DNA from: Planctomycetota bacterium
GTDB lineage: Bacteria > Planctomycetota > DG-23 > DATKVD01
Length of the DNA stretch: 64,000 nucleotides
Assembly (NCBI GenBank): GCA_037439485.1
Contig: JBBIVY010000003.1
Span: forward strand, 1,452-65,451
Reading direction: 5' to 3'
Shown here: positions 30,677-63,975 of the stretch, in pieces
How positions within the stretch are numbered: position 1 is the stretch's first letter
Layout: the number at the start of each line of letters is the position of its first letter
Position numbers and translations under genes: made by a program
The notes under the pieces: model-generated
The model's database searches: none
Seen by the model: the letters and a program-made list of their open reading frames with translations, nothing else
Told to the model about the DNA's origin: nothing

Positions 30677-30755
30677 CGTGTTCCCCGTGTGCTTACTCTT
30701 CCCGCGCCGGGCCTTTGGCAGGGACTGTCCCGCCCTGTCGTTCGAAACGGCAAGA

Positions 30756-30793
30756 GCCCTCACCCTGACCCTCTCCCCCAAGGGGAGAGGGAG
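30756..30793. repeat. REP-like element family 2, copy in queH 3' flank
   Basis: gccctcaccctgaccctctcccccaaggggagagggag; ~13 nt beyond queH stop (TAA rc at 30806-30808). Confidence 0.6.
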
Positions 30794-46183: not shown

Positions 46184-46229
46184 CGGCCTCCTCTCGATGA
46201 ACTCGGGAGGAGGCCGTTTTCATTTCTCT
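46184..46229 (+). terminator. intrinsic terminator after LysM gene
   Basis: CGGCCTCCTC-13 nt loop-GAGGAGGCCG followed by TTTTCATTTCTCTC. Confidence 0.6.
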
Positions 46230-46330: not shown

Positions 46331-48346
46331 CTACGGCTTCGGCAGCGGGGCAGGGGTCGAAGGCGTGGTGGGCTCGAGCTCCGGTTTGGGCGGGGTCTTT
46401 TCGGGGCCGAACCACATGAGTTTGTCGTCGAGCTTCCAGTTGATGTCGAAGTAGCCGGCGACCCTGTAATTATTGGTGCCGCCCGCGGCGGCGAACGTGT
46501 CGTCGTAGACGATGTAGTCGGGCAGCAGATCGAGCTTGTGGTTTCTCGAAAGCCCGGCGCCCCACGCCAGGCCGCTGTGGACGACAACCAGCTTCTCGGG
46601 GTTCAGCGGGTTCGGGTAGCAGAGCACCATCCCCAGGTTCTCGCCCTCGAACGTGTTCTTGCCCACGGTGAACTTCCCTTCGCCGATTGTCACGGGCAGC
46701 TTTTCCGCGATGCGTTTCACCACGGAGTTCGTCGCCGGGGTGCCGTAGAGGACGAGGTTATAGAGCTTGATGTCCTCCTCGGTGATCTCCTCGTCCTTCT
46801 TGACGCGCGGGATTCCCGCCGCGAATTCATACCATTCGACGACGCCGGTGGAAATCGCCTTGCGCGAGGCGAGCTTCGTCTCCTCGCTTCCCTGCGAGCC
46901 GTAGACCATCATGAACGGCTGCTGGTAGGCCTCGTAGGCCGGGCCCGAGAGTTCAGCGCGCTTGCGCAGGCCCTCCGCCGGCACCGTGTCGAGCAGGAAG
47001 GTGAGGGCGCCGGCCTTGTTCGCGACGGGCTTGATGAGCTTCCCATCCGGCATCCGCGCCTGGAGCAGCGTCGGCTGGAAGATGGCCTTGGCGCAGTCGA
47101 GCGTGAACTTCGCGACGTTCTCAGCCTTCACCACGACGACCACGGGCGACTCGTAGCGCACGTCGATCTCGGCGGGCTTGCCGTAGGCCGTGAAGTCGTC
47201 GATCGTCACCCAGTAGGCCCGGTTGAAGCGCGGGTGATAGGTGCGGTAGGTGACGCGCAGGGGCGTCCGGTTGAGGCGCTTTGCGGGCGTCCAGCCGTAG
47301 AAGAGGTCGCTTTCGTAGGCGTCAAAGCAGGTCCAGTGGTCGCCCTTGGGGAAGATGTGGAGGATGGCCTCGAAACCCGCCGCCTGAAGGGCCTTGACCA
47401 TCGACTTCGACTGCTCCGGCTGCACCAGCCAGTCGTCCTCGCCGTGGAAGGCAAAGACCGGCAGGTTACGGAAGTTGGGCACGAGGGTGATCGCGAAATC
47501 GCGGTCGATGTTGAGCTGCTTGTACTCGGCCAGCGTCCCGCGCGGCACGTTCTGCCAGAGGTTGTAGTCGGTGCGCCCCGAGGCCGGGATCGCCGCGGCG
47601 AAGCGGTCGGGATAGTGTGAGCCGACCGTCCAGACGCCGCTGGCGCCCATGGAGCACCCGGCGAGCCACACGCGGTCGGGGTCGGCATGGGTTTCGCGGA
47701 TCGCCAGATCGATGGTCTTGAGGACGTCGCGTTCGCCGAGGCCCTGGAAGTCGGTGTTGCTCCGCGCGAACGGCGCCACCAGCACCGCCCCGAGCCGGTC
47801 GGCCGAGCGTTTGCACCCCTCGGGCATCGTCGTCTCCAGCCAGTTCACCTTGTCGAGGCTGCCGACGTAGCCGTGCAGGAAGAGAAGCACCGGCGGCGGC
47901 ACGCCCGGCGGGAGCTTCTCGGGCACATAGAGGTAATACGGCTGCGCGGAGCCGTCGACGTCGGAGAGATAGGCGTGCTCGACGAGTCCGGTCGCCGGCA
48001 GCGCGTATTTCTTTCCGGCCGCAAGCGACGCGAGCACGTCGCGCGCCTCGGCGAGGGTCTTGCGGAAGGCCTCGTCGCGCGCGGGGCCGGGGGTGTAGCG
48101 GCCCGTAAGGAGCGCGCACTTCTCGACCTTCAGCGAGGCGAGGGCGAAGTCGTCGCGGAAGTCGTGGCAGGCGGAGGCGTGCTCCTTGACGACCTTCTGA
48201 TATTCCTGGGCGAGGGCGCCCATCTCCGCGCGGAGTTTGTCCTCGATCGGGTCGGCGCCGGGCGCCTGCTGGGCGGCGAGCGGCGCCGACAGCGCCAAAG
48301 CCGCGGCGAGGGCGGCGGTTATCCACAGAAGGTCAAGTCGTCGCAC
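46331..48346 (-). CDS. secreted alpha/beta hydrolase (S9-peptidase/esterase-like) with long C-terminal extension; last gene of glycolipid-like cluster
   Basis: ORF 46331-48373 (TTG); better start GTG 48346 with SD AAGGAAA; signal peptide RRLDLLWITAALAAALALSAPLAAQ; LLFLHGY, nucleophile elbow GCSMGASG, HGEDD; start overlaps stop of upstream Wzy_C gene. Confidence 0.75.
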   Translation of the reverse strand: MRRLDLLWITAALAAALALSAPLAAQQAPGADPIEDKLRAEMGALAQEYQKVVKEHASACHDFRDDFALASLKVEKCALLTGRYTPGPARDEAFRKTLAEARDVLASLAAGKKYALPATGLVEHAYLSDVDGSAQPYYLYVPEKLPPGVPPPVLLFLHGYVGSLDKVNWLETTMPEGCKRSADRLGAVLVAPFARSNTDFQGLGERDVLKTIDLAIRETHADPDRVWLAGCSMGASGVWTVGSHYPDRFAAAIPASGRTDYNLWQNVPRGTLAEYKQLNIDRDFAITLVPNFRNLPVFAFHGEDDWLVQPEQSKSMVKALQAAGFEAILHIFPKGDHWTCFDAYESDLFYGWTPAKRLNRTPLRVTYRTYHPRFNRAYWVTIDDFTAYGKPAEIDVRYESPVVVVVKAENVAKFTLDCAKAIFQPTLLQARMPDGKLIKPVANKAGALTFLLDTVPAEGLRKRAELSGPAYEAYQQPFMMVYGSQGSEETKLASRKAISTGVVEWYEFAAGIPRVKKDEEITEEDIKLYNLVLYGTPATNSVVKRIAEKLPVTIGEGKFTVGKNTFEGENLGMVLCYPNPLNPEKLVVVHSGLAWGAGLSRNHKLDLLPDYIVYDDTFAAAGGTNNYRVAGYFDINWKLDDKLMWFGPEKTPPKPELEPTTPSTPAPLPKP

Positions 48347-49682
48347 CCGGTTTCCTTTCGGCAATCGTCGCAACGGCCGCGGCGAGCGCGAGGAGCAGGA
48401 CGGTCGCCGGCCCGGTGCCGTGCACGAGCGTGTTGGTGAAGAGGTTGGTCACGATGAGCGAGGCGAGCGCCCCGATGCAGCCGAGGAGCAGCCCCTTGAG
48501 GACCTTGTCGTCGGTCGCCAGGTACCCCTTCGCCGCCCGGCGCAGGTGCGCGACGATGAGCCACAGGAAGACGAGCCCCGCCGGGATTCCCGCCTCCACC
48601 GCCAGCACCAGGTAGAAGTTCTCGGTATTGGGCTCGGTGGTGTTCTTGTTGGGCTTGGGCAGCGTGCCGTAATACTGGTCGATGTTGAGTTGGTAATTGC
48701 CGATGCCGACGCCGATGAGGAGCTGCCGGATGTGCCGGTTTTCGCCGATGCCCAGTTCGCGGAATGCCCCGGGCGTCAGCGGCTTCATCGCCGCCTGCCA
48801 CTGGAGATACCGCGCGTTGGGCCCGGGCTGGGCGGACGCGTCGCTCACGCTGCCTTCGTCGTAGAGCTGGATCGACTGGCGGACGATCTTCGGGTTGTCG
48901 TGCTGGAGCTGCGGCGTTCCCCAGATGAGGAGCCCGACGAGCCCCGCGGCGAAGAGCGCGAAGCCCCAGTGCCAGCGGATCACGAGGATCACCGCGATGC
49001 CGACGAGCGCCCCGAGGAGCGGCCCCCCCGCGAGCATCGTCGCCAGGCCCAGCCCCACGAGCACCGTCCCGTAGGCCACCGCCCGCCAGCCGTTCGGCCA
49101 GACCGTCATCCCGAACGCCAGCGGCAGCACGAGCGCCAGGTAACCGCTGTAGACGTTGCGGTCGGCGAACGGCCCGGAGACCTTCACGGGGTCGTAGTCC
49201 ATCAGGTAATCGACGAGGCCCCAGATGCCGACCGCCGCCGCAACCAGCGTCCAGATCGTCACCGCCGTCTGCACGCGGTCGAGGGAGTTCATCAGCGTCG
49301 TGAAGACGAGGTAGAGGAGGATGAAATACTCGACGTATTGCACACTCTTGGCGACGGCGGTCAACCGGTTTCCGGCGACGAAAGCGGAAGCCACGGCGAG
49401 AGCGGCGAGGAGGATCCCGGGGAGGGTGAGCCGCCGGAGTTGCTTCCAGTCGCCTTCGACGACGACGCGCACCAGGAGCAGCGCGCCCGCGAGCCAGATG
49501 AGGATGTCGGCCAGGGCGAGGTGCGGGGCCTTGGCGACGGTCTTCTCGTCCAGGCGGAGGAGTTTCCCCAGCCAGTCGAGCGGGAGCGCCCAGGAGGTCG
49601 CGTGGACCAGGAGGATGAGCGCGGCGAGAAGCATGACGCTCATTCCCAGCACGTCGCGGCGGGGGGGCTTAGCGTCGCTCAT
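48333..49682 (-). CDS. O-antigen ligase / Wzy_C-family polysaccharide polymerase-ligase-like membrane protein
   Basis: ORF 48333-49847 trimmed to ATG 49682; ~11 TM; large periplasmic loop and Wzy_C-type core (...AHNSYLqvlaE-like VEAGIPAGLVFLWLIVAH...); start overlaps upstream GT4 stop. Confidence 0.7.
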   Translation of the reverse strand: MSDAKPPRRDVLGMSVMLLAALILLVHATSWALPLDWLGKLLRLDEKTVAKAPHLALADILIWLAGALLLVRVVVEGDWKQLRRLTLPGILLAALAVASAFVAGNRLTAVAKSVQYVEYFILLYLVFTTLMNSLDRVQTAVTIWTLVAAAVGIWGLVDYLMDYDPVKVSGPFADRNVYSGYLALVLPLAFGMTVWPNGWRAVAYGTVLVGLGLATMLAGGPLLGALVGIAVILVIRWHWGFALFAAGLVGLLIWGTPQLQHDNPKIVRQSIQLYDEGSVSDASAQPGPNARYLQWQAAMKPLTPGAFRELGIGENRHIRQLLIGVGIGNYQLNIDQYYGTLPKPNKNTTEPNTENFYLVLAVEAGIPAGLVFLWLIVAHLRRAAKGYLATDDKVLKGLLLGCIGALASLIVTNLFTNTLVHGTGPATVLLLALAAAVATIAERKPGATT

Positions 49683-50829
49683 GATGGACCTCGCAATAGA
49701 TGTCCTCGATGCGGCGGATGGACGGGGCCAGGCGATAGTCGCGCGAGACGATTTCGCGCGCGGCGCATCCCATCGCGGCGCGGCGGGCGGGATCCGCCAG
49801 CAGGCGGAGCGTTTCGCGCGCGAGCGCGGGCACGTCCTCGCGCTCAATTATAGCGCCGGCGCGGCCGTTTTCCAGCACGCTTTCGAGTCCGCCGATGCGC
49901 GTCATCACGATCGCCCGGCCCGCGCCCATCGCCTCCAGCAGCGCGTACGGCATCGCCTCCCACCGCGAACTCATGACGAAGACGTCCAGGAGCGCAAAGA
50001 GGTCGAGCACGTCGTCGCGCTCGCCGGCGAAGTGGAAGACGTCGTCGAGCCCCTGCTCATGGGCCAGGGCCTTGAGTTGCCCCTCGTACGAACCCTTGCC
50101 CACGAGCAGGAAGTGTACGCCGGGGGCCGATTCGCGGATGAGCTTCGCCGCGCGGATGAAGACGTCGTATCCCTTCTGTCGCCCCAGCCTCCCGATGCTG
50201 CCGACGATGGGCGCCCCCTCGGGCAGGCCCAGTTCGCGCCGAAGGGACGCGCTGGGCGGGCGCAGGGCGAGTTCGTCGTCGCTGAGCCCGTTTACGATCG
50301 TCACGACCTGGTGCGGAAGCGCGGCGCCGCTCTGAATGGCGACCTCGCGTTCGTGCGGGCTGACGGCGATGAGCCTGTCGGTCACGCGCCCGGCGAGGAA
50401 TTCGAGCGACTTGTAGCACCACCCCGTGAACCTGCCGAACCCCGCGGTGAACGAGAAGCAGTGAGGCGTATAGACGACCCACGGCCGCCCCGTGAAGAAC
50501 GCGGCCATCCGGCCCAGAAAGCCGGCCTTGGAACTGTGGCAGTGGACGACGTCGTAGTTGGCGCGGTGGAAGAGACGGATGAGGCGGATGAGCGCCCGCA
50601 GGTCGGCGACGGGCGAGACCTGGCGCGTCATCGGGATGATGTGGACGACGAACCCCTCCGCGCGCAGTGCGTCCACGTCGCGGTGAAAACCCTTCGGGTC
50701 GCGCAGGTCCGAGGCCACCAGCTCCAGCTCGAACCGCGAGCGGTCGATGCGCCGCATCAGCTCCAGCACGTGTTTTTTCGTGCCGTTCTCGGTTGCCTCC
50801 ACCACCTCCGCGACGCGCAGTCGTTTCAT
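49669..50829 (-). CDS. glycosyltransferase family 4
   Basis: ORF 49669-51273 trimmed to ATG 50829 (MKRLRVAEVVEATENG...; ATGA overlap with upstream gene); GT-B fold, EX7E-type region FAGERDDVLDLFALLDVFVMSSRWEAMPYALLEAMGAGRAIVMT. Confidence 0.85.
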   Translation of the reverse strand: MKRLRVAEVVEATENGTKKHVLELMRRIDRSRFELELVASDLRDPKGFHRDVDALRAEGFVVHIIPMTRQVSPVADLRALIRLIRLFHRANYDVVHCHSSKAGFLGRMAAFFTGRPWVVYTPHCFSFTAGFGRFTGWCYKSLEFLAGRVTDRLIAVSPHEREVAIQSGAALPHQVVTIVNGLSDDELALRPPSASLRRELGLPEGAPIVGSIGRLGRQKGYDVFIRAAKLIRESAPGVHFLLVGKGSYEGQLKALAHEQGLDDVFHFAGERDDVLDLFALLDVFVMSSRWEAMPYALLEAMGAGRAIVMTRIGGLESVLENGRAGAIIEREDVPALARETLRLLADPARRAAMGCAAREIVSRDYRLAPSIRRIEDIYCEVHHERR

Positions 50830-52511
50830 GATCGCTTGAGCTTTCTCCTCGCCCATCCGAGCGCGTCGTGCCATTCCTCGATGTGGAGGAGGTGGACGCC
50901 GAGCGCGAAGACGGCCGCGCCGACGCCGGAGACGATGACGAGCCCGGCGATGCCCTTCATGCTGCGGCCGGCGGGCACGACGAGCATGAGCGCCCGGATC
51001 GCGAGGCCCATGGCCGCGGTGGCGAGCGCGACTTTGCCCACCGTCGGCAGCGCGTGCGCGAGCATCGTCTTCCACAGGCGCGCGTCGCGATAGACCCGCG
51101 CGAGGAGCACGAAGAGCAGCAGCACCTTCAGCGCCTTGGAGGCCGCGTAGGCGAGGTTGAACGCGCCCGCCATGTGCAGCGCTCCGGCGCGGTTGAAGTC
51201 GTCCGCGGGCAGCCAGAGGATGACACACGCGAGGAGCAGCAGGTTGACCAGCGACGCGACGATGCCGGTCCACGTGGGGGTCCAGGTCTCGCGCGCGGCG
51301 TAGAAGAATTGCAGGAGCACGATCTCAAGCCCGAAGAAGACGTAGCCGAGCGCGTACCACCGCACCGCTTCGGCCGTCATCGCCACGTCGGCCGGAGTGA
51401 ACTTGCCGCCGCCGAAGATCACCTCGACGATCGGCCGGGCGAGGAGCGTCATCGCCACGGTAAGCGGGAGGAAGACGAGGAAGATGATGCGCACCGCCTT
51501 GGCGAGGATGTCGAAGAGCGGCTCGATCTGCTTTTTGGCGAAATACTCGCTGAGGAACGGAAAGATGGCGATGGAGAGCGCCACCGGGAAGAGTTGGATG
51601 GGGATGTCGACCGGCGCGCGGGCGTAGGGGACGATGGTCATGGCCTTGCCGCCCAGGACGGCGGAGAGGAGCACGTCCTCGCCGCGGTTGCGCAGGAAGG
51701 AGACGAGCACGCCCGCGACCAGCGGCAGCATCAGGAAGCCCAGCCCTCGCATGGCCGGGGTGTTGAGCTTCATCTCGAAGCGGAAGCGGCGGATTTCGCC
51801 CCGCAGGCCCCACGCGTAGAGGGCGAGCTTCGCCGCGGCCCCGAGGACGATGCCCGCGATGAGTCCCCAGACGATGTACCGGTCGACGTGATCGACCGGC
51901 GCGTGCGTCGCCCGGCCCCAGGCCTTGAACCCCGCCCACGCCACCACGAGCGCGAGGCACGGCACGACCTTCACGAACACCTGGTCGCCGAAGGCGGCGA
52001 GCTGAAAGCGCTTGTACGAGTTGAGAAGCATGTAGCCCGTCACCGCGAGCGTGAGGAACAGGATCGCGGGCGCGAGCGCGATGAGATACTTCGCCGATAA
52101 CGCCTCGTCCTCCGGGCCGAAGCTCGTGAGCGTCGCCACGATGGGCCGCGAGAAGAACATGCACGCCGCGGCGAGGAGCACGAGGAACACGACCTGCACG
52201 TTGATGATCGAGTTGATGAACCGCCACGCGCCGTCCTCGCCCACGCGCTTCTTCTCCGCGGCAAGCTCCGGCAGAAACGTTGGCCGGAGCAGCTTGTCCC
52301 ACGTGCGGAAGATGTCCTGCGTGAGGCGATAGACGTAGTTGAACGCGTTGGCCGTCGCCTCGGTACCGAGGAGGCGCGAGAGGATCATCTTCATGACGAT
52401 GCCGGTGAGATACCCGGCGGCGGTCAGGATGCCTATCCCCGCGGCGGCCTTGGCCATCTTCCGGCCGTCGGAGGCGTTCGTCGCAGGGGCAGGTGCGATG
52501 TCGTCAGCCAT
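50826..52511 (-). CDS. MurJ/MviN-family MOP-superfamily flippase
   Basis: 561 aa, ~14 TM; MviN-like N-terminal region GIGILTAAGYLTGIVMKMILSRLLGTEATANAFNYVYRL; start overlaps upstream GT4 stop. Confidence 0.8.
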   Translation of the reverse strand: MADDIAPAPATNASDGRKMAKAAAGIGILTAAGYLTGIVMKMILSRLLGTEATANAFNYVYRLTQDIFRTWDKLLRPTFLPELAAEKKRVGEDGAWRFINSIINVQVVFLVLLAAACMFFSRPIVATLTSFGPEDEALSAKYLIALAPAILFLTLAVTGYMLLNSYKRFQLAAFGDQVFVKVVPCLALVVAWAGFKAWGRATHAPVDHVDRYIVWGLIAGIVLGAAAKLALYAWGLRGEIRRFRFEMKLNTPAMRGLGFLMLPLVAGVLVSFLRNRGEDVLLSAVLGGKAMTIVPYARAPVDIPIQLFPVALSIAIFPFLSEYFAKKQIEPLFDILAKAVRIIFLVFLPLTVAMTLLARPIVEVIFGGGKFTPADVAMTAEAVRWYALGYVFFGLEIVLLQFFYAARETWTPTWTGIVASLVNLLLLACVILWLPADDFNRAGALHMAGAFNLAYAASKALKVLLLFVLLARVYRDARLWKTMLAHALPTVGKVALATAAMGLAIRALMLVVPAGRSMKGIAGLVIVSGVGAAVFALGVHLLHIEEWHDALGWARRKLKRS

Positions 52512-53712
52512 GGGGCGTCCTCAGGATGCGTTCCAGCGCGCTCAGCGTCGATTCGAGCGCGAATTCCCTGTCTATTAGAGCGCGGGCGCGGGCGGTTATG
52601 TCGTTTGCGCGCGCGGGATTCGCAAGCGTCTCGCGGGCTGCCGAGGCAAGCGCGAGGGCGTCGCCGCTCGGGACGAGCCGGCCCGTCTCGCCGTCTTTGA
52701 CCACCTCGGCGATACTCCCCGCGTCCGACGCGATTACCGGCACGCCCACGGCCATCGCTTCGAGGACGATGTTGGGGATGCCGTCGCGGTCGCCCGCGCG
52801 ATCGACCACGCTCGGCACGACGACAATCTCGGCGCGCGCGAGCAGGTCCATCAGCGCGTCGTGGCGCATCCATCCGCGAAGCTCGACCGGGGCCGCGGTC
52901 TCGGCGATGAGCTGTTCAAGCCGCACGCGCTCGGGGCCTTCGCCCACGATGACGCCTCGGAGGGCGGGCGCGTCCTTCGCAAGCTCGGCGTACGCGCGTA
53001 TAAAGAGATCGAAGCCCTTCTTGCGCTCGAGCCGCCCGGCGGCCAGCAGGAATCCCTTGCTTTGGGCGCGGCGGGGGAGGGTGGCGCGGTCGATGCCGTG
53101 GTGGATGAGCGTCACCTTCGGCGCACGGCACGGGCCCGCGACCTCGCGCAGGCGGTCCGCCGCGGCGCGGTTGCACGTCACCACGGCGTCCGCGAGCGCG
53201 GCCTTTTCCCGGAGCATCCGCCCCTCCACGAATACGTCCCGCGCGTGCGCGGCGAAGGAGAATTCCATGTCGAACGCGCGGGCGATGATCCAGCCGATGG
53301 TCGCCGGAAGGCTGGCCCAGAGGGCGTGGACTCGGCGGACGCCGAGTTTCCGCAGTTCATATCCGACGGCGAGGGCGCGCGGGACGTTCCGCATCGCCTG
53401 GAACGTATCGCGTCCGTGGCGCCCGTGTCCGCGGTAGAGCGTCCAGAGGATGGCGAGCCACTTCAGCGGGTGCGTAAAGGCGAAGCGGACCTCGGCCGAA
53501 AGCGCGCGCCAGGTGAAGTACCCCGGCCGCAGGAGGACGGTCGCGTCGATGCCGGCGGCCTCCGGCGCATCGGGCAGTTTCTTTGTGGCGACGATGACGA
53601 AATCAAGCCCGCGCGCGCGGAGTTCCCGAAGCTCGCGCAGGAGGAACGTCTCGCTCGGTTTCGGGTATTCGCCGGCGATGAACGCTACCCGGACTCGGGG
53701 CTCATCCGCCAT
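52504..53712 (-). CDS. glycosyltransferase family 4
   Basis: 402 aa; GT-B; C-terminal EAMAVGVPVIASDAGSIAEVVKDGETG motif; overlaps neighbours at both ends. Confidence 0.85.
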   Translation of the reverse strand: MADEPRVRVAFIAGEYPKPSETFLLRELRELRARGLDFVIVATKKLPDAPEAAGIDATVLLRPGYFTWRALSAEVRFAFTHPLKWLAILWTLYRGHGRHGRDTFQAMRNVPRALAVGYELRKLGVRRVHALWASLPATIGWIIARAFDMEFSFAAHARDVFVEGRMLREKAALADAVVTCNRAAADRLREVAGPCRAPKVTLIHHGIDRATLPRRAQSKGFLLAAGRLERKKGFDLFIRAYAELAKDAPALRGVIVGEGPERVRLEQLIAETAAPVELRGWMRHDALMDLLARAEIVVVPSVVDRAGDRDGIPNIVLEAMAVGVPVIASDAGSIAEVVKDGETGRLVPSGDALALASAARETLANPARANDITARARALIDREFALESTLSALERILRTPHG

Positions 53713-54538: not shown

Positions 54539-54552
54539 GGTTTCTCTCTTTT

Positions 54553-54641
54553 GTAGGGGGCTCCCGACGTGTCGGGATGGCCCCGTGCTCCTTCTTCTCG
54601 ACAAAGAAGAAGAGCGGGCGGACACATGGGTCCGCCCCTAC
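54553..54641. repeat. composite REP-like element (GTAG - three hairpins - CTAC) filling the gap between the two hydrolase genes
   Basis: GTAG(54553-54556), TCCCGACGTGTCGGGA, CTTCTTC-tcgacaaa-GAAGAAG, GGGCGGAC-acatgg-GTCCGCCC, CTAC(54638-54641); CTA is rc TAG stop of 54638-55453. Confidence 0.55.
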
Positions 54642-57526: not shown

Positions 57527-58482
57527 TCGAACACCCCCTCGGTCAGCCGGGCGACGTCGGCCAACGGGGACGACCGGGCGAAGTCCTCGGCCTCTTTCAC
57601 CTCCTTCGCGGCGGTCTCGGCAATCGCGTCGAGTTCGGATTCCGTTGCAGCGCGCTTGTCGAGGAGGACGCCGCGGAGCAACTCGATGGGGCAGCGGGCC
57701 TTCCACGCGGTCTCTTCGTCGCGCGTGCGGTAGAGGCACTGGTCGGAGCGGGAATGCCCGCAGAAGCGATAGGTCATGCACTCGAGGAACGCGGGCCCTC
57801 CGCCCGAACGCGCCCATTCCACCGCGCGACCGGCGGCCTCCGCGACGGCGAGCACGTCGTTGCCGTCGACGGTCTCAACGCCGAGGCCGAACCCGCGCAC
57901 GCGGTCGGAGAGCTTCGACACGGCGCAGCTTTCCTGGAAAGGCGTGCTCATCGCGTAGAGATTATTCTCGCAGACATAGACGACCGGAAGCTTCCAGATC
58001 GCGGCGAGGTTGAGGCATTCGTGAAAGACGCCCTGGTTGGCGGCGCCGTCGCCCATCATGCCGACGACGACGTTGGGAATCTTGCGCTGTTTGAGCGCGA
58101 GCGCCGCGCCGGTGGCGATGGGAAGCCCGCCGCCCGTGATGCCGTTCGAGCCGAGAAAGCCGACGTCGAAACAGGCCATGTGCTGGCTGCCGCCTCGGCC
58201 TTTGGCATAGCCCGTTTCGCGGCCGAAGATCTCGGCCATCATGAGTCTGGGGTCGCCGCCCTTGGCGAGGAAATGCCCGTGTCCGCGGTGGGTGCCGTTC
58301 ATCCAGTCGCCGTCGCGCAATACGGACGCCACGCCGACCGGCACGGCCTCCTGCCCGATGCAGAGGTGACAGGTCCCGGCAACCTCGCCCTTGAGGAAAA
58401 GGTCGCTCAGCCGCTCCTCGAAGCGCCGGATGAGGAGCATGTCGTGGTAGAGTTTCTTCAGGCGGTCGGCGTCGAGGTTCAT
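57523..58482 (-). CDS. 2-oxoacid dehydrogenase E1 component alpha subunit (TPP-binding)
   Basis: ORF 57523-58647 trimmed to ATG 58482 (MNLDADRLKKLYHDMLLIRRFEERL...); TPP motif GDGAANQGVFHECLNLAAIWKLPVVYVCENNLYAMS; 1-nt gap to upstream KS-like stop. Confidence 0.85.
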   Translation of the reverse strand: MNLDADRLKKLYHDMLLIRRFEERLSDLFLKGEVAGTCHLCIGQEAVPVGVASVLRDGDWMNGTHRGHGHFLAKGGDPRLMMAEIFGRETGYAKGRGGSQHMACFDVGFLGSNGITGGGLPIATGAALALKQRKIPNVVVGMMGDGAANQGVFHECLNLAAIWKLPVVYVCENNLYAMSTPFQESCAVSKLSDRVRGFGLGVETVDGNDVLAVAEAAGRAVEWARSGGGPAFLECMTYRFCGHSRSDQCLYRTRDEETAWKARCPIELLRGVLLDKRAATESELDAIAETAAKEVKEAEDFARSSPLADVARLTEGVFE

Positions 58483-58483
58483 G

Positions 58484-59461
58484 TCAACTCGCGATCCTGC
58501 GGAGGACGACAGCGGCGGCCCCGGACTCGTCGGCGCTGACGACGGCGGCGGCGACGGGCGATTCGGCGAGGCCCAGTCGCGCGGGCGGAGTCGTGGCGTC
58601 GAGGACGAGCGCGGCGAGGGCGACGCCCGTGAGCGCGCCCGCGGCACCGCAATCGCCGACCGCCTTGACGAAGTCCACGGCCTTCAGGCCCGCCGAGACG
58701 GCAAGACCGTCCGTCGGGGCGTCGACGAGGAGCCAGTCGAGCTGCGGGCGGCCGAGCGACGCCTGCGCCAGCGCCCGCGAGAGCGCCTCGTCGGCCGTGC
58801 GGGCCAGGCCGCATCCGGCGACCTCCGCCATCCCTCGCGCGCCACGCTTCAGGACGTCAAGTTCGCGCTCCAGCACCAGCGTCGCCGCAGCGTCAAACGC
58901 CTGAGCGGAGGCTCCCCGGCGCGTCGTCTGAGTATACGTATCTCCAGCGCCCGCAAGCATTACGGTCATTTTTCCGGCGCGCAATTCGTCGAACGCCTGC
59001 GCCAGCGCCTCGACCCCGGCGGCCCGTCCCGAGTTGAAGTTGAAGCTCGTCCCCATCAGCTTGAACTCGATCGCCGCGAGACTCAGCGAGGTGTTGGGAT
59101 AGGCGTGGATGAAGAGCAGGGGGCTCGCCAGTTTCGCGCCCTGCTCGCGCAGCATCTTCAGATACGATTCCTGCGTCGCGATGTTGCCGAACTTGGTGCC
59201 GAAGCTCATGCCGACGGCGTCGCGGCTTGCGCTTTCCGGCGTCAGCTTGGCGTCGCGCAGCGCCAGCGAGGTCGCGGCGAGGACCATCGCGCTCGTGGGG
59301 TCGAGGTAGGTCTTGGCCCCGGTGACGAAGTCCTCGATGCGCAGCGCGGGCGCTGCGACGGGCTCAAACCCCTTGGCGAGCGTCGCGGCAAGGCTGTCGC
59401 GCCCGATGCCCAGCGGCCCGACCGTGCCGATTCCCGTGACGAAGATGCGCGAGGCGGTCAT
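58484..59461 (-). CDS. beta-ketoacyl synthase-like protein lacking the active-site Cys (chain-length-factor-like KS partner)
   Basis: ORF 58484-59527 trimmed to ATG 59461 (MTASRIFVTGIGTVGPLG..., ATGA overlap with KS stop); thiolase fold; position of catalytic ACSS occupied by GTSFNFNSGRAAG; no His-His pair. Confidence 0.7.
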   Translation of the reverse strand: MTASRIFVTGIGTVGPLGIGRDSLAATLAKGFEPVAAPALRIEDFVTGAKTYLDPTSAMVLAATSLALRDAKLTPESASRDAVGMSFGTKFGNIATQESYLKMLREQGAKLASPLLFIHAYPNTSLSLAAIEFKLMGTSFNFNSGRAAGVEALAQAFDELRAGKMTVMLAGAGDTYTQTTRRGASAQAFDAAATLVLERELDVLKRGARGMAEVAGCGLARTADEALSRALAQASLGRPQLDWLLVDAPTDGLAVSAGLKAVDFVKAVGDCGAAGALTGVALAALVLDATTPPARLGLAESPVAAAVVSADESGAAAVVLRRIAS

Positions 59462-60678
59462 GGCATTCTCCTCAGCACGACGGCGGAGTTGGATCCGCCC
59501 AGACCGGAGGAGTTGGAGATCGCGCATCGGACGTCATGTTTCTCCGCCCCCGCGGTGCAATAGTGCAGGTCGCAGTCGGGGTCGGGCGTCTGGTAGTTGA
59601 TCGTGGGCGGAACGATGCCCGTCTCGATCGTCCGCGCCGTGACGAGCGTTTCGACGATGGACGCCGCGCCCATGAGGTGGCCGATCATCGACTTGATGCC
59701 GTTGACGGGGATCTCCGAGGCGCGCTTCCCGAGCACGGCCTTGATGGCGGCGGTCTCGGAGGCGTCGTTATACTTTGTGGAGGTCGCGTGGGCGTTGACG
59801 TGGTCCACCTCGCCGGGGCCGACGCGGGCGTCTTCCAGGGCGCGCATCATCGCGCGGACGATGGACGACCCGTCCTTGTCCGGGGCGGTGAGGTGGAACG
59901 CGTTGTTGTTCGTGTGATGCCCGGCCAGCTCGACGCGCGCTTCGCGGCCGCGGGAACGCGCGTGCGACTTCGTCTCCAGCACGATCGCCCCGGCGCCTTC
60001 GCCGAAGATCGTGCCGCTGCGGTTCTTGTCGAACGGTCGTACCTTGTCCGTCGTCATCGTCCGAAGTGCGAGGAGGCCGCTCCAGCAGTATTCGCTGATG
60101 ACGTCGTATCCGCAGACGACGGCCACCTTCGCCCGTCCCGCGCGCACGAGGTCCGTCGCGTAGCCGAGCGCGGCGTTGCCCGAGGCGCACGAAAGCGACA
60201 GCGTCACCCGCGGCCCCGCGATGCCCCAGAGGTTGCCGAGGCAGGCCGTCGCGTGGCCGAGCAGGCTTTCGCGGATGGCCTCCTCGTCCGGCTCGGTGCC
60301 ATAGGCGGCGGAGGCGTACATCTCTTCGCACGCCTCGGCGGGGCCGAAGTTCGTGGCCATGACGAGCGCGGTGTCGGCGGGGGGCAGGTCGCTCTGAGTG
60401 AGTCCGGCGGAAGTCAGCGCCTCGCGGACGGCCCAGGCGCTGAAGCGTAACCCGAGATCGGCGGAGCGGAGCGTCGGGTCCTCGGGGAAGTCCATCGCGG
60501 CGACGGCCGATTCGGGGACCATCCCGGCGACCTTCACCCGGTGCTCGGCGGGGTCGAACCGCTCGATGGGGTGGATGCCGTCCTTGCCCGCGACGAGGCT
60601 CTCCCAGAGGAGATCCACGCCGAGGCCGAAGGGCGACACGCACCCGAGACCCGAGATGACGACCGGCTCGCTGCTCAC
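59458..60678 (-). CDS. beta-ketoacyl-ACP synthase (FabF/KAS II-like), catalytically complete
   Basis: ORF 59458-60684; GTG 60678 preferred (SD GAGGAG 8 nt upstream); active-site LSLSCASGN, His motifs HVNAHATST and IGHLMGAAS. Confidence 0.85.
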   Translation of the reverse strand: MSSEPVVISGLGCVSPFGLGVDLLWESLVAGKDGIHPIERFDPAEHRVKVAGMVPESAVAAMDFPEDPTLRSADLGLRFSAWAVREALTSAGLTQSDLPPADTALVMATNFGPAEACEEMYASAAYGTEPDEEAIRESLLGHATACLGNLWGIAGPRVTLSLSCASGNAALGYATDLVRAGRAKVAVVCGYDVISEYCWSGLLALRTMTTDKVRPFDKNRSGTIFGEGAGAIVLETKSHARSRGREARVELAGHHTNNNAFHLTAPDKDGSSIVRAMMRALEDARVGPGEVDHVNAHATSTKYNDASETAAIKAVLGKRASEIPVNGIKSMIGHLMGAASIVETLVTARTIETGIVPPTINYQTPDPDCDLHYCTAGAEKHDVRCAISNSSGLGGSNSAVVLRRMP

Positions 60679-60713
60679 AATCACCGCTCCTCGTGGCCTG
60701 CGCTATCGCACAG

Positions 60714-60751
60714 CGCCCTCACTCTGACCCTCTCCCCCAAGGGGAGAGGGG
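60714..60751. repeat. REP-like element family 2, copy in fabG-like gene 3' flank
   Basis: gccctcactctgaccctctcccccaaggggagaggggaa; 38-bp near-identical to 30756-30793. Confidence 0.6.
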
Positions 60752-60760
60752 AATGGGGAA

Positions 60761-61522
60761 TTACATCCTCAGCCCCCCGTCGACGACGAACACCTGTCCT
60801 GTAATATAATCGGCCCAGCCGGACGAAAGGAATAAGACGATTCCGGCGACGTCCTCGGGCACGCCGAATCGGCGCATGGGAATGAGGTCGAGGAGGCGTT
60901 CGCGCGTCGAGATCGGGGTGTCCTTGACGAAGTCGGTGTCGATGACGCCCGGGGTGACGGCGTTGACGGTGACGTTGAAGGCGGCCAGGTCGCGGGCGGC
61001 GGCATGGGTGAAGCCGATCATCCCGGCCTTGGCGGCGGCGTAGTTCGCGCGTTTGACGTCGCCGGTGAGCCCCGCGACGCTGGAGATGTTGATGATCCGG
61101 CCGGACTTCCTGTGGGTCATCACCCGCGAGGCGGCCTTCGCGCAGAGGAACGCGCCCTTGAGGCTCACGTCCACCACGTCGTCCCAGTCGGATTCCTTCA
61201 TGAACGGGAGGAACGTGTCGCGCGAGATGCCGGCGTTGTTGACGAGGATGTCGAGGGCGCCGAACGCCTCGGCGGAGGCCTTCATCATGGCCGAGACGGC
61301 CTCGGCGCTGCGGACGTCGCAGCCGTAAGCCAGGGCGGAGCCGCCGAACGCCCGGATCTCCCCGACGACCGCCTCGGCGGCCTCGCGGTGGTTCGTGTAG
61401 TTGACGAGCACCCTGGCCCCGGCCTGCGCGAGCGTCAGGGCGATCCGGCGGCCGATGCCGCGCGACCCTCCCGTGACCACGGCCGACTTGCCCTCCAGCC
61501 ACCTCGGAACCGATGCGCTCAC
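60761..61522 (-). CDS. 3-oxoacyl-ACP reductase (FabG-type SDR ketoreductase)
   Basis: ORF 60761-61555; GTG 61522 preferred (SD AAAGGAGGGGGG upstream; the alternative ATG lies inside a REP palindrome); GKSAVVTGGSRGIG Rossmann motif, NNAG, catalytic Y..K region. Confidence 0.85.
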   Translation of the reverse strand: MSASVPRWLEGKSAVVTGGSRGIGRRIALTLAQAGARVLVNYTNHREAAEAVVGEIRAFGGSALAYGCDVRSAEAVSAMMKASAEAFGALDILVNNAGISRDTFLPFMKESDWDDVVDVSLKGAFLCAKAASRVMTHRKSGRIINISSVAGLTGDVKRANYAAAKAGMIGFTHAAARDLAAFNVTVNAVTPGVIDTDFVKDTPISTRERLLDLIPMRRFGVPEDVAGIVLFLSSGWADYITGQVFVVDGGLRM

Positions 61523-61541
61523 CGCAGGCCCCCCTCCTTTT

Positions 61542-61600
61542 TGTAGCACAGGCATTCCTGCCTGTGATGCTTATGACAGGCAAGAATGCCTGTCCCACAA
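61542..61600. repeat. REP-like element family 1, double-hairpin copy (GTAG + two palindromes + CCACAA)
   Basis: tGTAGcacaggcattcctgcctgtg atgcttat gacaggcaagaatgcctgtc ccacaa; coordinates +/-1; intergenic between fabG-like and lipoyl-protein genes. Confidence 0.6.
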
Positions 61601-61607
61601 TGAGCGC

Positions 61608-62102
61608 TCACGATCGACCCTCCTCGACCTGCTGCTGGACGTGCTCTTCGGTCACGACGTCGACGCCGAGGCGCTTTCCGAGCGCCGCGATGTCGATGCC
61701 GCGTTCCTTCGCCAGCCGCCGGGCGCGGGGCGTTGCCCGGACTCGGTCTTCCGCCGGCATCGCCGGGGCTGCGGGTTTCGAGGGCGCCGCCGCGCGGCCG
61801 GTCGCGGTTGCGAGATACTCCGCCATCATCCGCGCGTTCTCCTCCGACACGTCGAGGAGCGGCTCGTCCGGTTCGCCCACGAGCGCCACGACGTAGCCGA
61901 GCGGCACTTCGCTCTTCTCGGGGGCGAGGATATGCCGGAGCGTCCCGGCCGCCTCGGCTTCGAGTTCGAAATTCGCCTTGTCGGTGATGACGTCGACAAG
62001 GACGTCGCCCTTTTCGACGCGGTCGCCGACGCTCTTGTGCCAGGGGCCGAGCGTGGCTTCGAGCGTGTTCGCGTCGAATTTGGGCAGCGCGACCTTGAAC
62101 AC
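61608..62102 (-). CDS. lipoyl-domain + E3-binding (peripheral subunit-binding) domain protein lacking the E2 acyltransferase catalytic domain
   Basis: ORF 61608-62180; preferred start GTG 62102 (SD GGAGA, gives M-FKVALPKF...), alternative ATG 62135 lies in a REP hairpin; lipoyl-lysine motif VDVITDKANFELEA; PSBD motif ATPRARRLAKERGIDIAAL; ends after linker (no catalytic DHRxxDG domain). Confidence 0.75.
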   Translation of the reverse strand: MFKVALPKFDANTLEATLGPWHKSVGDRVEKGDVLVDVITDKANFELEAEAAGTLRHILAPEKSEVPLGYVVALVGEPDEPLLDVSEENARMMAEYLATATGRAAAPSKPAAPAMPAEDRVRATPRARRLAKERGIDIAALGKRLGVDVVTEEHVQQQVEEGRS

Positions 62103-62127
62103 GGTGTTTCTCCGTGGCTTTGGTGGG

Positions 62128-62180
62128 GCAGACATTCCTGTCTGCCCCCCGAATGACAGGCAGGAATGCCTGTCCCACAA
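62128..62180. repeat. REP-like element family 1, second double-hairpin copy
   Basis: gcagacattcctgtctgc cccccgaat gacaggcaggaatgcctgtc ccacaa; same architecture as 61542-61600; lies between lipoyl-protein start and GT4 stop. Confidence 0.6.
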
Positions 62181-62188
62181 ACTTCATA

Positions 62189-63388
62189 CTAACGTCCGCG
62201 CGCGCGCTCCGCAAGCACCTCGTCGTAGACGCGCTCGATTCCTTCGGCGGTGAGCCCGGCGTCGAACCTCGATGCGGCCGCCGCGGCCCGCGAGCCCATC
62301 GACGCGCGAAGGGCGCTTGAGCCGAGCAGGTCCGAAAGCGCCCCGGCCAGGGCCGGCACGTCGCCGAACGGCACCAGGAGGCCCGTTTCGCCGTGCTCGA
62401 TGATCTCCGGCAATCCCCCGGCGCGCGTGCCGACGACGGGCTTGCCCATCGTCATGGCCTCCACCGCCGCGCGGCCGAACGGCTCGTTACGCGAGGGGAG
62501 TACCACGACGGTGCTGTCGATCAGGCATGAGGCGACGTCGTTCCGCCGGCCGGCGAAGATCACGACGCCCTCGAGGCCGAGCGTGCAAACGAGCTTGCGC
62601 AGGTGCGCCAGGTGCGCGGCGTCGTCGGGCGACATCGCTTCGCCGACGAAGAGCACTCGCAGCGAGGGGAACTTCTGGCGCGCCGCGCCCAGGGCGGCGA
62701 TGAGAAATTCGTGCCCCTTCCAGGGCGTCATCTGCCCGACGAGCGTGACAAGCGGAGCCTCGGGCGGAATGCCGAACTCGAACCTCACGCGGTCGGGCCG
62801 GGCGGAGGCGAGAAGCGATGCGCGGTCGATGCCGTTCATGACGAGGCGCACTTTCCCGGCGCCGGCGCGGCCGGCCCGAGCGAGCACGCTCTTCTCGACG
62901 GCGCCGCTGATGCAGATGACTCGGTCGGCAAACCGGAGCAGCGTTCGAGCGCCCGCGCCGAGATCGACGAGGTCCCGCACGTGCCACACCGAGCCCGTGC
63001 GCCGGAGCGCCGCGGCGGGTCCGGCCGAGAGGAACGCCGTGGTCGTGTTCGCGTGGACGATGTCGATCCTGCGTTCGGCGATGATGCGCGAAAGGCTGAG
63101 CGTGGAGAGCCCGACGTCGGCGAGCCCGGCCGCGACGGCGGGGATGGCCCTCGCGCGGCGGATGCGGCGGAGGCGGACGGTGATCTGCTCGATGCCGGCG
63201 ACGCGCACGGCGTCGGCGAAGGGGCCTTCGGGGCAGGCGACGACGGGACGGAACCGCCGGCGGTCGATGCGCGCGAGGACCTCCAGCAGGCTTATCTCGG
63301 CGCCCGAGATTCTTGCCGAGTGATCCACGCAGAGCACATTGGCCGGGCCTTCCCGTCCCGATGCATCGGGACCCGCAGGCGGGTTCAT
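62189..63388 (-). CDS. glycosyltransferase family 4
   Basis: 399 aa; GT-B; EAMTMGKPVVGTRAGGLPEIIEHGETG; ATGA-type overlap with upstream lipoprotein gene. Confidence 0.85.
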   Translation of the reverse strand: MNPPAGPDASGREGPANVLCVDHSARISGAEISLLEVLARIDRRRFRPVVACPEGPFADAVRVAGIEQITVRLRRIRRARAIPAVAAGLADVGLSTLSLSRIIAERRIDIVHANTTTAFLSAGPAAALRRTGSVWHVRDLVDLGAGARTLLRFADRVICISGAVEKSVLARAGRAGAGKVRLVMNGIDRASLLASARPDRVRFEFGIPPEAPLVTLVGQMTPWKGHEFLIAALGAARQKFPSLRVLFVGEAMSPDDAAHLAHLRKLVCTLGLEGVVIFAGRRNDVASCLIDSTVVVLPSRNEPFGRAAVEAMTMGKPVVGTRAGGLPEIIEHGETGLLVPFGDVPALAGALSDLLGSSALRASMGSRAAAAASRFDAGLTAEGIERVYDEVLAERARGR

Positions 63389-63975
63389 TCCATGCCTTGG
63401 GGGGTATAATCCATGTCGCGCGTGACGATCAATTTATCCAGCTTCACGCCCGCCTCGCGGTTGAGCACTTCGAGCATGTTCTCGCCCTTCTTGAGGTCGT
63501 AGAGCGCCGGGGCGGCCTTCCAGTCCCATCGGTCGTAGGTGCCGTCTCCGCCGAACTGCACGGGGGCGCCGCCGTTGACGACGAAGGTCCACGAGTTGCC
63601 GCAGCCGTCGCGCCAGAACTTCCGTCCCCAGATGCGGTACTGGCCGTCCTCGGGAACATTGAACTTGTAGATCGCCGCGCCCCAGCGCGCCGGATACTTC
63701 TTGCCGTTCTCGCCCGCGACTTCCCCGTTGGGCTTGCCGGCGTCGCCTTCCACCTTGATGCACCTGCCGCCCGACGCCGTGGCGTCGTTGTCGACCTCCA
63801 CGGGTTTCTCGAACATGCCGGCGCTTTCCGCCTCGATGACGATGCGCGCGGTCGCGGCCGTCTCGTGCTCGTGCACCTTCGGGACCGCGGGGGCCGGAGT
63901 GTCGTTATTGCCGCCGCCACAGCCGGCGAGGGCGAGGGCGAAGACGGCGGCGAAGGCTGATTGGGTGCGCGTCAT
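63385..63975 (-). CDS. lipoprotein with beta-sandwich (carbohydrate-binding-module-like) domain; first gene of cluster in window
   Basis: 196 aa; lipobox ALALAGC; IVIEAESAGM...GGRCIKVEGDAGKPNG...WGRKFWRDGCGNSWTFVV region resembles CBM-like folds (family unresolved). Confidence 0.6.
   Translation of the reverse strand: MTRTQSAFAAVFALALAGCGGGNNDTPAPAVPKVHEHETAATARIVIEAESAGMFEKPVEVDNDATASGGRCIKVEGDAGKPNGEVAGENGKKYPARWGAAIYKFNVPEDGQYRIWGRKFWRDGCGNSWTFVVNGGAPVQFGGDGTYDRWDWKAAPALYDLKKGENMLEVLNREAGVKLDKLIVTRDMDYTPQGME

Follow-up and report, generated by a model that had tools for sequence, protein, structure and literature searches.

We describe here a succession of 17 minus-strand genes (46331-63975) within a 64-kb stretch of contig JBBIVY010000003.1 of a Planctomycetota bacterium (assembly GCA_037439485.1), the whole stretch being referred to below as the window, and we consider it likely that these genes constitute a glycan locus with an in-built acylation module that depends on an acyl carrier protein (ACP). 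An original prediction, made from the sequence alone, had read the same run as a single operon for a candidate novel glycolipid system, with a ketosynthase (KS) and a 2-oxoacid E1 enzyme at its heart. Our analysis places the core elsewhere, in a cassette of four genes that encode a GT2 glycosyltransferase, a stand-alone ACP and two unlike alpha/beta-hydrolase-fold proteins, hydrolase 2 and hydrolase 1. The statement as a whole, that this is one conserved cell-surface glycan or glycoconjugate locus equipped with a self-supplied acylation module, appears to us evenly poised, and the specific chemical route of acyl supply and transfer set out below is tentative and rather doubtful. The most interesting aspects are a lipoyl carrier without an E2 catalytic core beside a KS, an ACP-tied hydrolase pair with Cys in one member and Arg in the other, and the link of that pair to the exosortase-associated hydrolases 1 and 2.

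All 17 genes claimed in the original prediction are real (Table 1). Profile searches against Pfam and NCBIfam, with curated cut-offs, upheld 15 of its 17 domain calls, including those of three GT4 glycosyltransferases, the GT2, the MurJ/MOP flippase and the secreted hydrolase; the other two calls were a carbohydrate-binding module-like domain and Wzy_C. The same domain scans of the 17 proteins found no dehydratase, enoyl reductase, acyltransferase or E3, as had been claimed, and also no AMP-ligase or E2 core. At two positions the longest open reading frames (ORFs), 61519-62214 and 60681-61598, were rejected as genes, being off-frame and lacking any Pfam match; the lipoyl carrier and FabG-type reductase genes are those of Table 1. 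The same-strand run extends about 5 kb beyond the end of the window, which therefore cuts the unit, and on contig L001 of the same organism three further same-strand genes lie 5' of the cluster.

Do these 17 genes behave as one unit? The evidence says yes, as far as gene arrangement can tell: the genes are interleaved and translationally coupled, their order is conserved, and there is no excess of internal terminators. Twelve of the 16 gene junctions overlap or are at most 1 nt apart (-41 to +1 nt), so that the claim of overlapping stop and start codons held for these, although not for the remaining four, which are gaps of 76-99 nt (86, 85, 76 and 99 nt), each with a palindromic hairpin. The E1 beta, GT2, ACP and hydrolase 2 genes are joined in this order through ATGA-type overlaps, and the acyl genes are flanked on both sides by glycosyltransferase genes. 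Eight terminator-like sites were found inside the cluster, whereas 11 were expected in shuffled sequence, and the sole strong terminator-like hairpin (46184-46216) is at the 3' end. The single-operon claim is thus supported by overlaps, conserved synteny, the internal terminator count and the one strong 3' terminator.

Two kinds of palindrome occupy three of the four gaps. The 20-nt palindrome GACAGGCATTCCTGCCTGTC, with up to two mismatches, has four copies in the window (8730-8749, 61547-61566, 61575-61594 and 62155-62174) versus 0 expected, and three of these are in two of the cluster gaps. The copies resemble hairpins of the repetitive extragenic palindromic (REP) type, and they yield misleading long off-frame ORFs that read '...GQAFLPVI...'. 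The palindrome in the gap between the FabG-type reductase and KS genes (cccctctcccc ttg ggggagaggg) spans 60700-60745 and is unlikely to be a terminator because no T-run follows it.

The gene order recurs on at least four other Planctomycetota contigs, with protein identities of 35-79%. These are independent contigs, from metagenomes and metagenome-assembled genomes (MAGs), labelled Planctomycetota, and a check of synteny among related contigs found the same order on L002/L003 and L004/L005 (52-79% identity), on L009 (50-78%) and on L010/L013 (35-62%). On L013 all genes from the lipoprotein to the esterase are present, the first and last of them cut at the contig ends, together with one extra GT4 gene. 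Judged from these comparisons, the recurring order rules out chance association.

That the core of the system is the four-gene cassette is indicated by a Planctomycetota MAG (GCA_040755855.1), in which the GT2, ACP, hydrolase 2 and hydrolase 1 genes stand alone (locus L012, 8013-10837), without KS or E1 genes and with an oppositely oriented UDP-glucose dehydrogenase gene beside them. We therefore take these four as the core and the lipoyl carrier, ketoreductase (KR), KS, KS-like, E1 alpha and E1 beta genes as a lineage-specific acyl supply, so the idea of the KS/E1 module as the heart of the system was not borne out. The same hydrolase pair is found elsewhere with quite different acyl-supply genes. 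No transmembrane segment was found in the GT2, and no close characterised homologue of it. The ACP, hydrolase 2 and hydrolase 1 genes are consecutive here, and the adjacency to an ACP gene is likewise seen in L012, in L013 and in L015, where a fused hydrolase 2-hydrolase 1 gene (1336-3345; 581 aa) lies right downstream of an ACP gene and a gene for a HAD-family hydrolase, an arrangement that speaks for the two hydrolases working with the ACP as a single enzyme.

The original prediction had described the pair simply as two alpha/beta hydrolases for release or remodelling, missing their distant kinship to the uncharacterised exosortase-A-associated hydrolases 1 and 2. The best NCBIfam match of hydrolase 1 is TIGR03100 (exosortase-A-associated hydrolase 1; 112.5 bits versus a cut-off of 168.45) and that of hydrolase 2 is TIGR03101 (exosortase-A-associated hydrolase 2; 134.3 bits versus 202.75). 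In hydrolase 1 the residues C111, D223 and H254 do not vary among 37 homologues, the most divergent of which have 44% identity. In hydrolase 2 alignment to structures in the Protein Data Bank (PDB) puts an Arg opposite the template Ser; this Arg is invariant in an alignment of 114 sequences, and an exhaustive search, which gave 193 representatives of the family at E<=1e-30, found it at the nucleophile position in 149 of the best 150. A third of those best 150 (50/150) are fusions of hydrolase 2 to hydrolase 1; these measure 560-650 aa, and in 43 of them the Cys is found in the second half. Only three of the 114 aligned relatives of hydrolase 2 reach the level of the canonical exosortase-associated family, so that the catalogued family is only a minor offshoot of a broader module tied to the ACP.

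The alpha/beta-hydrolase fold of both proteins was thus confirmed, while the invariant triad and Arg, the frequent fusion and the constant ACP adjacency fit a pair that transfers acyl groups in conjunction with the ACP better than one for release or remodelling. We propose hydrolase 1 as a candidate acyl-ACP acyltransferase, and hydrolase 2 is probably its non-catalytic or substrate-binding partner. As a separate observation, the KS-like protein and hydrolase 2 both carry an invariant Arg where the active paralogue (KS and hydrolase 1, respectively) has its nucleophilic Cys. This double replacement may be a coincidence, or it may be a common way to hold a carboxylate or phosphate of the substrate.

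The residues of hydrolase 1 bear on another explanation, which is that it is a polyester-synthase-like enzyme and assembles, from (R)-3-hydroxyacyl thioesters, a short oligo(3-hydroxyalkanoate) chain on the glycan, to be trimmed or released by the terminal esterase as a member of the poly(3-hydroxybutyrate) (PHB) depolymerase family. A Cys-Asp-His triad in such a lipase-box elbow is the residue pattern of polyhydroxyalkanoate (PHA) synthases, and hydrolase 1 has it (G-x-C-x-G-G elbow); moreover, the FabG-type reductase gives (R)-3-hydroxy stereochemistry and the best NCBIfam matches of the terminal esterase are PHB-depolymerase-family models. However, the AlphaFold model of hydrolase 1 (predicted local distance difference test score, pLDDT, 90.6) folds like a small lidded esterase, lipase or thioesterase, with small lidded esterases and lipases nearest; a PhaC-like fold was rejected, since the 50 best structural matches listed do not include PhaC, and there was no PhaC match in Pfam or NCBIfam either. 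The esterase scores lie far under the family cut-offs (70.7 versus 150 bits; 38.3 versus 107.85) and its closest solved structures, LC-Est1C and 3doh, are generic esterases, so that its assignment as a PHB depolymerase is weak. With the hydrolase pair elsewhere accompanied by quite different acyl-supply genes, we regard a polyester synthase as quite improbable, and return to hydrolase 1 as a candidate acyltransferase.

In the KS, SCASG, NAHATST and GHLMG line up with catalytic residues in solved enzymes of the KS II (FabF) type, confirming the intact Cys/His/His triad that had been claimed. The claim of a KS-like partner without the catalytic Cys was also right: Arg146, invariant in 16 sequences, replaces the Cys and both His are replaced by Asp. 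The partner gene has a 4-nt ATGA overlap with the KS gene and ends 1 nt before the E1 alpha gene. The best solved matches of the two proteins are two chains of one heterodimer entry (9s5h_B for the KS and 9s5h_C for the partner), and they would seem to behave as a heterodimer pair. The chains of 9s5h are named just as 3-oxoacyl-ACP synthases, and a text search of the literature found no relevant paper for the code 9S5H. The reductase has the motifs TGGSRGIG (TGxxxGxG) and YAAAK (YxxxK).

Two loci with distant relatives of the KS partner lie in unrelated clusters and are uninformative for the present locus. L007 is a polyene-like cluster with FabA/ApeI-type dehydratases and LolA/MMPL genes. L008 (265-16882), an unusual cluster, has two KS/KS-like pairs among four B12-binding or SPASM radical-SAM enzymes and further encodes a DUF3473 polysaccharide deacetylase, a methyltransferase, an AMP-ligase and an ATP-grasp enzyme.

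Could the acyl genes simply be the housekeeping fatty acid synthesis (FAS) and pyruvate dehydrogenase (PDH) set of the cell, lying by chance inside a polysaccharide locus? E1 beta passes the PDH E1 beta subfamily cut-off (NF006667; 395 bits versus 321), and the FabG-type reductase (TIGR01830; 282.2 bits, cut-off 297.75) and E1 alpha (TIGR03182; 364 bits, cut-off 393.85) come close to their equivalog cut-offs. The KS, however, is far under the cut-off of the fabF model (324.8 bits versus 493.75), as is the ACP with the housekeeping ACP (AcpP) model (30.7 versus 70.45); the lipoyl protein lacks the catalytic core; and E3, FabD, FabZ and FabI are all missing from the cluster. Furthermore, the acyl genes are interleaved with glycosyltransferase genes and translationally coupled to them, the arrangement is kept across divergent genomes, and the family of the KS partner is extremely rare, with 16 close clusters in 5.8 billion sequences and three loci in 185,579 species genomes (one genome per species). 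Given the scores, the lack of an E2 core and the conservation of gene order, we rejected the housekeeping explanation, which we consider very improbable indeed. The view that the acyl genes are dedicated, as originally predicted, is supported by these sequence features, namely KS, ACP and reductase scores that fall short of the equivalog cut-offs for FabF, AcpP and FabG, respectively, and a lipoyl protein without an E2 core, and by the remainder of the window, in which no FAS or PDH genes were found.

The dedicated supply includes a thiamine pyrophosphate (TPP)-dependent E1 that, by its scores, is of the PDH type: E1 alpha gives 211 bits against the human PDH E1 alpha versus 132 bits against the branched-chain (BCKDH) E1 alpha. 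The lipoyl carrier has its lipoyl lysine in TDKA, followed by an E3/E1-binding domain, and ends about 20 aa past the latter with no 2-oxoacid_dh (PF00198) core, confirming the predicted absence of an E2 catalytic domain. It aligns solely with the N-terminal parts of E2 models. Its family comprises 94 homologue clusters, nearly all of 150-200 aa with the same two domains, and on this basis it is a member of a separate family of E2-less carriers.

More distant members of that family are also found apart from KS genes. At L018 (8066-14930) E1 beta, E1 alpha and E2-less carrier genes are followed by genes for a cupin, a xylose-isomerase-like TIM-barrel protein, an SDR, an enolase-superfamily protein and an aminotransferase, and at L017 a carrier and a KR gene are followed by an unknown gene, with no E1 or KS. 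The L018 locus lies on a 1.65-Mb contig and is a second, different use of an E2-less carrier. Such loci, together with the acetoin-dehydrogenase E2 model being the best NCBIfam match of our carrier, speak for an alternative in which the E1 and lipoyl carrier, perhaps with the reductase, modify a sugar or small substrate (C2 addition or cleavage, or acetoin-type C-C cleavage) and the KS is primed by decarboxylation of malonyl-ACP. E1-like pairs have been reported to add C2 branches in antibiotic sugar pathways. Yet the KS and partner genes lie between the lipoyl carrier-KR and E1 alpha-E1 beta genes in all syntenic contigs, 1 nt from E1 alpha; the partner carries Arg rather than the Gln that classical chain-length factors (CLFs) use for decarboxylative priming; and there is no dehydratase in the cluster that would form a 4-keto sugar. 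We hold this sugar-modifying alternative to be improbable.

The remaining genes are those of glycan assembly, export and the cell surface. The MurJ-family protein gives 192.6 bits with TIGR01695 and is probably not the peptidoglycan flippase itself because this is below the MurJ equivalog cut-off of 235.55. The Wzy_C-like protein, kept in L013 at 33% identity, is a plausible candidate for a polymerase or ligase. Over its N-terminal ~330 aa, as far as the contig reaches, the esterase is 46% identical to that of L013; its Pfam matches are Peptidase_S9, Esterase and DLH, and its C-terminal half (~300 aa) has no Pfam match. The lipoprotein has no match in Pfam, NCBIfam or the PDB, and a single-sequence model of it reached a pLDDT of 33.5; it is present at the same position in L004, L009, L010 and L013 with 40-51% identity.

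These genes are where the original prediction's word 'glycolipid' has to be weighed. The product could be a free glycolipid or biosurfactant, in which case the KS, KR and ACP would make 3-hydroxyacyl-ACP, the hydrolase pair would, like RhlA, esterify 3-hydroxyacyl units to each other, the glycosyltransferases would glycosylate the resulting lipid and the MurJ-like protein would export it. RhlA, RhlB and RhlC have the same list of parts, an alpha/beta-hydrolase-fold enzyme with an ACP and a ketoreductase, and here too such an enzyme lies beside an ACP and a ketoreductase gene. A Cys nucleophile would be expected to favour transfer over hydrolysis, a secreted esterase closes the cluster, and the cluster is without a priming phosphoglycosyl transferase, a chain-length regulator or a Wza-type exporter. 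Priming transferases, however, often lie outside glycan clusters. Moreover, a Wzy_C-like polytopic protein with a MurJ-family flippase suggests an oligosaccharide linked to a lipid carrier, four glycosyltransferases exceed the need of typical small glycolipids, and the minimal cassette of L012 is without lipid-making genes. A free glycolipid is in our estimate unlikely, if the least so of the alternatives considered here, and we continue with an acylated surface glycan.

How might such a glycan be acylated? In the route that we tentatively propose, E1 would decarboxylate pyruvate (or a close 2-oxo acid) and acylate the lipoyl arm of the free carrier, which would dock by its binding domain and be re-oxidised by the E3 of the cell. 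The acyl-lipoyl thioester would then prime the KS, either directly, with the lipoyl arm as the priming carrier, or via the ACP; we suggest this step because the cluster has no other priming enzyme (KSIII, acyltransferase or ligase) and the partner is without Gln. The KS/partner heterodimer would condense the primer with malonyl-ACP, the malonyl group being loaded by the FabD of the cell as in other type II systems, and the reductase would yield a short (R)-3-hydroxyacyl-ACP, which would be 3-hydroxybutyryl if the primer is pyruvate-derived and there is one round of extension. Hydrolase 1, held or guided by hydrolase 2, would take the acyl group as a Cys thioester and transfer it to the sugar made by the neighbouring GT2, at a hydroxyl or amino position. 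The remaining GT4 enzymes would lengthen the glycan on a lipid carrier before it is flipped by the MurJ-like protein and polymerised or ligated by the Wzy_C-like protein, and the secreted esterase and the lipoprotein would act on the product outside the cell.

Several points weigh against this account. No catalyst was found in the cluster for the hand-off from the lipoyl arm to the KS or ACP. E2-less carriers occur without KS, as at L017 and L018, and the trio of E1, lipoyl carrier and KR may therefore act independently of the KS. A cellular dehydratase and enoyl reductase could work in trans and give longer chains. The structures nearest the model of hydrolase 1 are ordinary hydrolytic esterases and lipases, not acyltransferases, the link of the esterase to PHB depolymerases is weak at the scores given above, and the Wzy_C match is sub-threshold (28.4 versus 31.7 bits). 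No priming phosphoglycosyl transferase, chain-length regulator or outer exporter was found in the cluster, the window or the upstream genes of L001, and these may be encoded elsewhere. The source organism, finally, is known from metagenomes only.

A bolder version would have the E1-loaded free lipoyl carrier start chains on a type II KS without an E2 core, which would be a new way of starting a chain; the Cys/Arg hydrolase pair would be a hitherto unrecognised two-protein acyltransferase, the same that has stood unexplained in exosortase-linked loci since 2006, and the product would be an acylated or oligo-hydroxyalkanoate-bearing surface glycan. To this combination we give little credence. 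The route proposed further above would, if correct, provide a function, carrier-protein-dependent acylation of surface glycans, for the widespread ACP/hydrolase 1/hydrolase 2 module that has been catalogued without a role, and a lipoyl arm that feeds a KS with no E2 core would be a new link from central 2-oxoacid metabolism to chemistry of the type II polyketide synthase (PKS) kind. It would also be the first genetic handle on acylated envelope glycans of the Planctomycetota, whose surface chemistry is poorly known. The KS-like protein and hydrolase 2 would both make a tidy case of pseudo-enzymes kept as obligate partners.

Table 1. Genes, intergenic gaps and terminator-like hairpin of the cluster, in order of transcription, with the genes upstream of it on contig L001 (positions are those of the window).
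Feature	Position	Strand	Remarks
Upstream genes on L001: coiled-coil protein; 957-aa protein with 3-keto-disaccharide-hydrolase/LamG-like domain; PEGA+TPR protein		same strand	
Lipoprotein, 196 aa	63385..63975	-	lipobox LAGC; beta-rich, no recognised domain
GT4, 399 aa	62189..63388	-	Glycos_transf_1 119 bits, Glyco_transf_4 59 bits; 4-nt overlap with lipoprotein stop
Gap, 86 nt	62103..62188	-	palindromic repeat of GACAGGCATTCCTGCCTGTC type
E2-less lipoyl carrier, 164 aa	61608..62102	-	Biotin_lipoyl 44 bits, E3_binding 26.4 bits
Gap, 85 nt	61523..61607	-	two copies of GACAGGCATTCCTGCCTGTC-type palindromic repeat
FabG-type 3-ketoacyl reductase, 253 aa	60761..61522	-	adh_short_C2 212 bits
Gap, 76 nt (FabG-KS)	60685..60760	-	other GC-rich palindrome, cccctctcccc..ggggagaggg
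Ketosynthase (KS), 408 aa	59458..60684	-	ketoacyl-synt N + C domains; Cys/His/His triad intact
KS-like partner (CLF-like), 325 aa	58484..59461	-	only Pfam ketoacyl-synt N-terminal domain detected
TPP-dependent E1 alpha, PDH type, 319 aa	57523..58482	-	E1_dh 276 bits; GDG...NN motif intact
E1 beta, 325 aa	56549..57526	-	Transket_pyr + Transketolase_C
GT2 glycosyltransferase, soluble, 282 aa	55704..56552	-	Glycos_transf_2 79.6 bits; first core-cassette gene
Stand-alone ACP, 85 aa	55450..55707	-	DSV serine; PP-binding 35.4 bits
Hydrolase 2, alpha/beta-hydrolase fold, 271 aa	54638..55453	-	Arg at nucleophile position (GLRLG)
Gap, 99 nt (hydrolase 2-hydrolase 1)	54539..54637	-	8-bp GC hairpin right behind hydrolase 2 stop codon
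Hydrolase 1, alpha/beta-hydrolase fold, 278 aa	53702..54538	-	Cys-Asp-His triad (GLCSGG)
GT4, 402 aa	52504..53712	-	Glyco_trans_1_4 116.6 bits
MurJ/MOP-family flippase, 561 aa	50826..52511	-	MurJ 183.5 bits; ~14 hydrophobic segments
GT4, 386 aa from ATG at 50829	49669..50829	-	Glycos_transf_1 122 bits; ATGA overlap with MurJ stop
Polytopic membrane protein, Wzy_C-like, 449 aa	48333..49682	-	Wzy_C 28.4 bits (Pfam cut-off 31.7); ~10 hydrophobic segments
Secreted esterase, 680 aa	46331..48373	-	signal peptide; Ser-hydrolase domain ~residues 140-350; GCSMG motif
Terminator-like hairpin	46184..46216		14-bp stem, between convergent LysM gene and cluster end

Outside the cluster the window is occupied by housekeeping genes: pyruvate phosphate dikinase (PPDK), a type II secretion/type IV pilus-like operon, DapB, Tgt, QueH, RuvAB and YajC-SecDF. 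No structured RNAs or tRNAs were found in it. The secretion operon (9168-23575, plus strand) encodes T2SSE-family ATPases at 9168-10961, 10879-12189 and 12224-13993. It also encodes a PilC/GspF-like protein, a 1285-aa protein without a Pfam match and four proteins that carry N-terminal methylation motifs. Two tandem 'putative esterase' (PF00756) genes (4111-5869, plus strand) adjoin the PPDK gene (5959-8811, minus strand). At 28563-30781 (minus strand) a polysaccharide deacetylase gene and the end of a SpoIID-domain gene overlap, the two probably serving peptidoglycan remodelling unrelated to the cluster, and at 33984-35324 (minus strand) a 446-aa protein combines two stretches of RNA-polymerase alpha C-terminal domain with TPR repeats, an unusual architecture.

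Cluster-directed full-text searching of the literature, together with the curated NCBIfam models, found no characterised equivalent of this combination of genes, so the claim that it is not a recognised pathway holds; the papers that came up on exosortases and ACPs were only tangential. There are nonetheless known systems with which its parts can be compared, and the closest for the hydrolase pair is the XrtA (EpsH, PEP-CTERM) system, that is, the type-1 exopolysaccharide loci of exosortase A. The hydrolase 1/2 cassette of XrtA includes, besides the two hydrolases, an ACP, an AMP-forming ligase and a pyridoxal phosphate (PLP)-dependent decarboxylase. Both systems have two unlike alpha/beta hydrolases adjacent to each other within a polysaccharide locus, here with the ACP beside them. 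The models TIGR03100 and TIGR03101 are the best NCBIfam matches of our pair, the GT4 enzymes of the cluster match XrtA-system sugar-transferase models best or second best, and the Arg at the nucleophile position is invariant in an alignment that includes members at the TIGR03101 cut-off level. The differences are that both hydrolase scores are under the cut-offs and that the acyl supply here is of the E1/lipoyl/KS/KR kind; no AMP-binding or Orn/DAP-decarboxylase domain was found among the 17 cluster proteins, and the window as a whole has neither such a ligase nor a PLP decarboxylase. Membership of an exosortase system was rejected, with the cut-offs unmet and no exosortase among 47 selected ORFs of the 64-kb window (at least 100 aa, with high GC content at third codon positions).

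For the KS pair the comparison is with highly reducing type II PKS-like pairs, such as those of cispentacin (AmcF-AmcG-AmcB), ishigamide (Iga11/12) and the aryl polyenes, which likewise pair an active KS with an inactive partner encoded by an overlapping gene and use a discrete ACP. All three Amc models match cluster proteins (AmcF the KS, AmcG its partner and AmcB the ACP), but below cut-off (224.9/325, 23.5/80 and 66.2/80 bits, respectively). For AmcF-AmcG just one C2 extension on the ACP has been demonstrated, with FabD proposed by the authors as the source of the malonyl group (PMC10698177). Our cluster differs in having no adenylating starter loader (AmcH-type ligase), dehydratase or cyclisation chemistry, in its partner of 325 aa with Arg at the Cys position, and in the embedding of the set in glycan genes. 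The distinction from aryl-polyene clusters drawn in the original prediction also holds, as the FabA/ApeI-type dehydratases and LolA/MMPL export genes are absent from the cluster.

The E1 and carrier invite comparison with two systems. Those of pyruvate and acetoin dehydrogenase share E1 alpha and beta with a TPP motif and the lipoyl and peripheral subunit-binding domains, whereas in our cluster there is no E2 core or E3 (no Pyr_redox protein) and the carrier is of the separate, short, E2-less family. In the quinocarcin/naphthyridinomycin system (QncN/QncL/QncM), a C2 unit passes from an E1-type enzyme to a lipoyl arm and on to a dedicated ACP, giving glycolyl-ACP. The E1 of that system is transketolase-like and acts on ketose phosphates, and the E2 has a catalytic acyltransferase domain; ours, in contrast, are a PDH-type E1 and a lipoyl protein without a catalytic domain.

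With respect to the glycan, O-antigen and exopolysaccharide loci of the Wzx/Wzy-dependent kind also combine several GT4 enzymes and a GT2 with a flippase of the MOP superfamily and a Wzy_C-like protein in one operon-like block, but the flippase here is of the MurJ family rather than a classical Wzx, a priming transferase, Wzz and Wza are all absent, and the acyl-synthesis module has no counterpart there. In the Nod factor (lipo-chitooligosaccharide) system NodC (a GT2), NodF (an ACP), NodE (a KS) and NodA (an acyltransferase) bring an ACP-borne acyl chain to an oligosaccharide. That system and ours both embed a dedicated ACP and KS with a GT2. Unlike it, our cluster has no homology to NodA, NodB or NodC, its putative transferase being the Cys alpha/beta-hydrolase pair, and it also has a flippase, a Wzy-like protein and the E1/lipoyl supply, with an acyl chain that is probably much shorter. 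All equivalog cut-offs tested were missed. A member of none of the curated families against which it was compared, the locus would appear to consist of known kinds of parts in a new arrangement.

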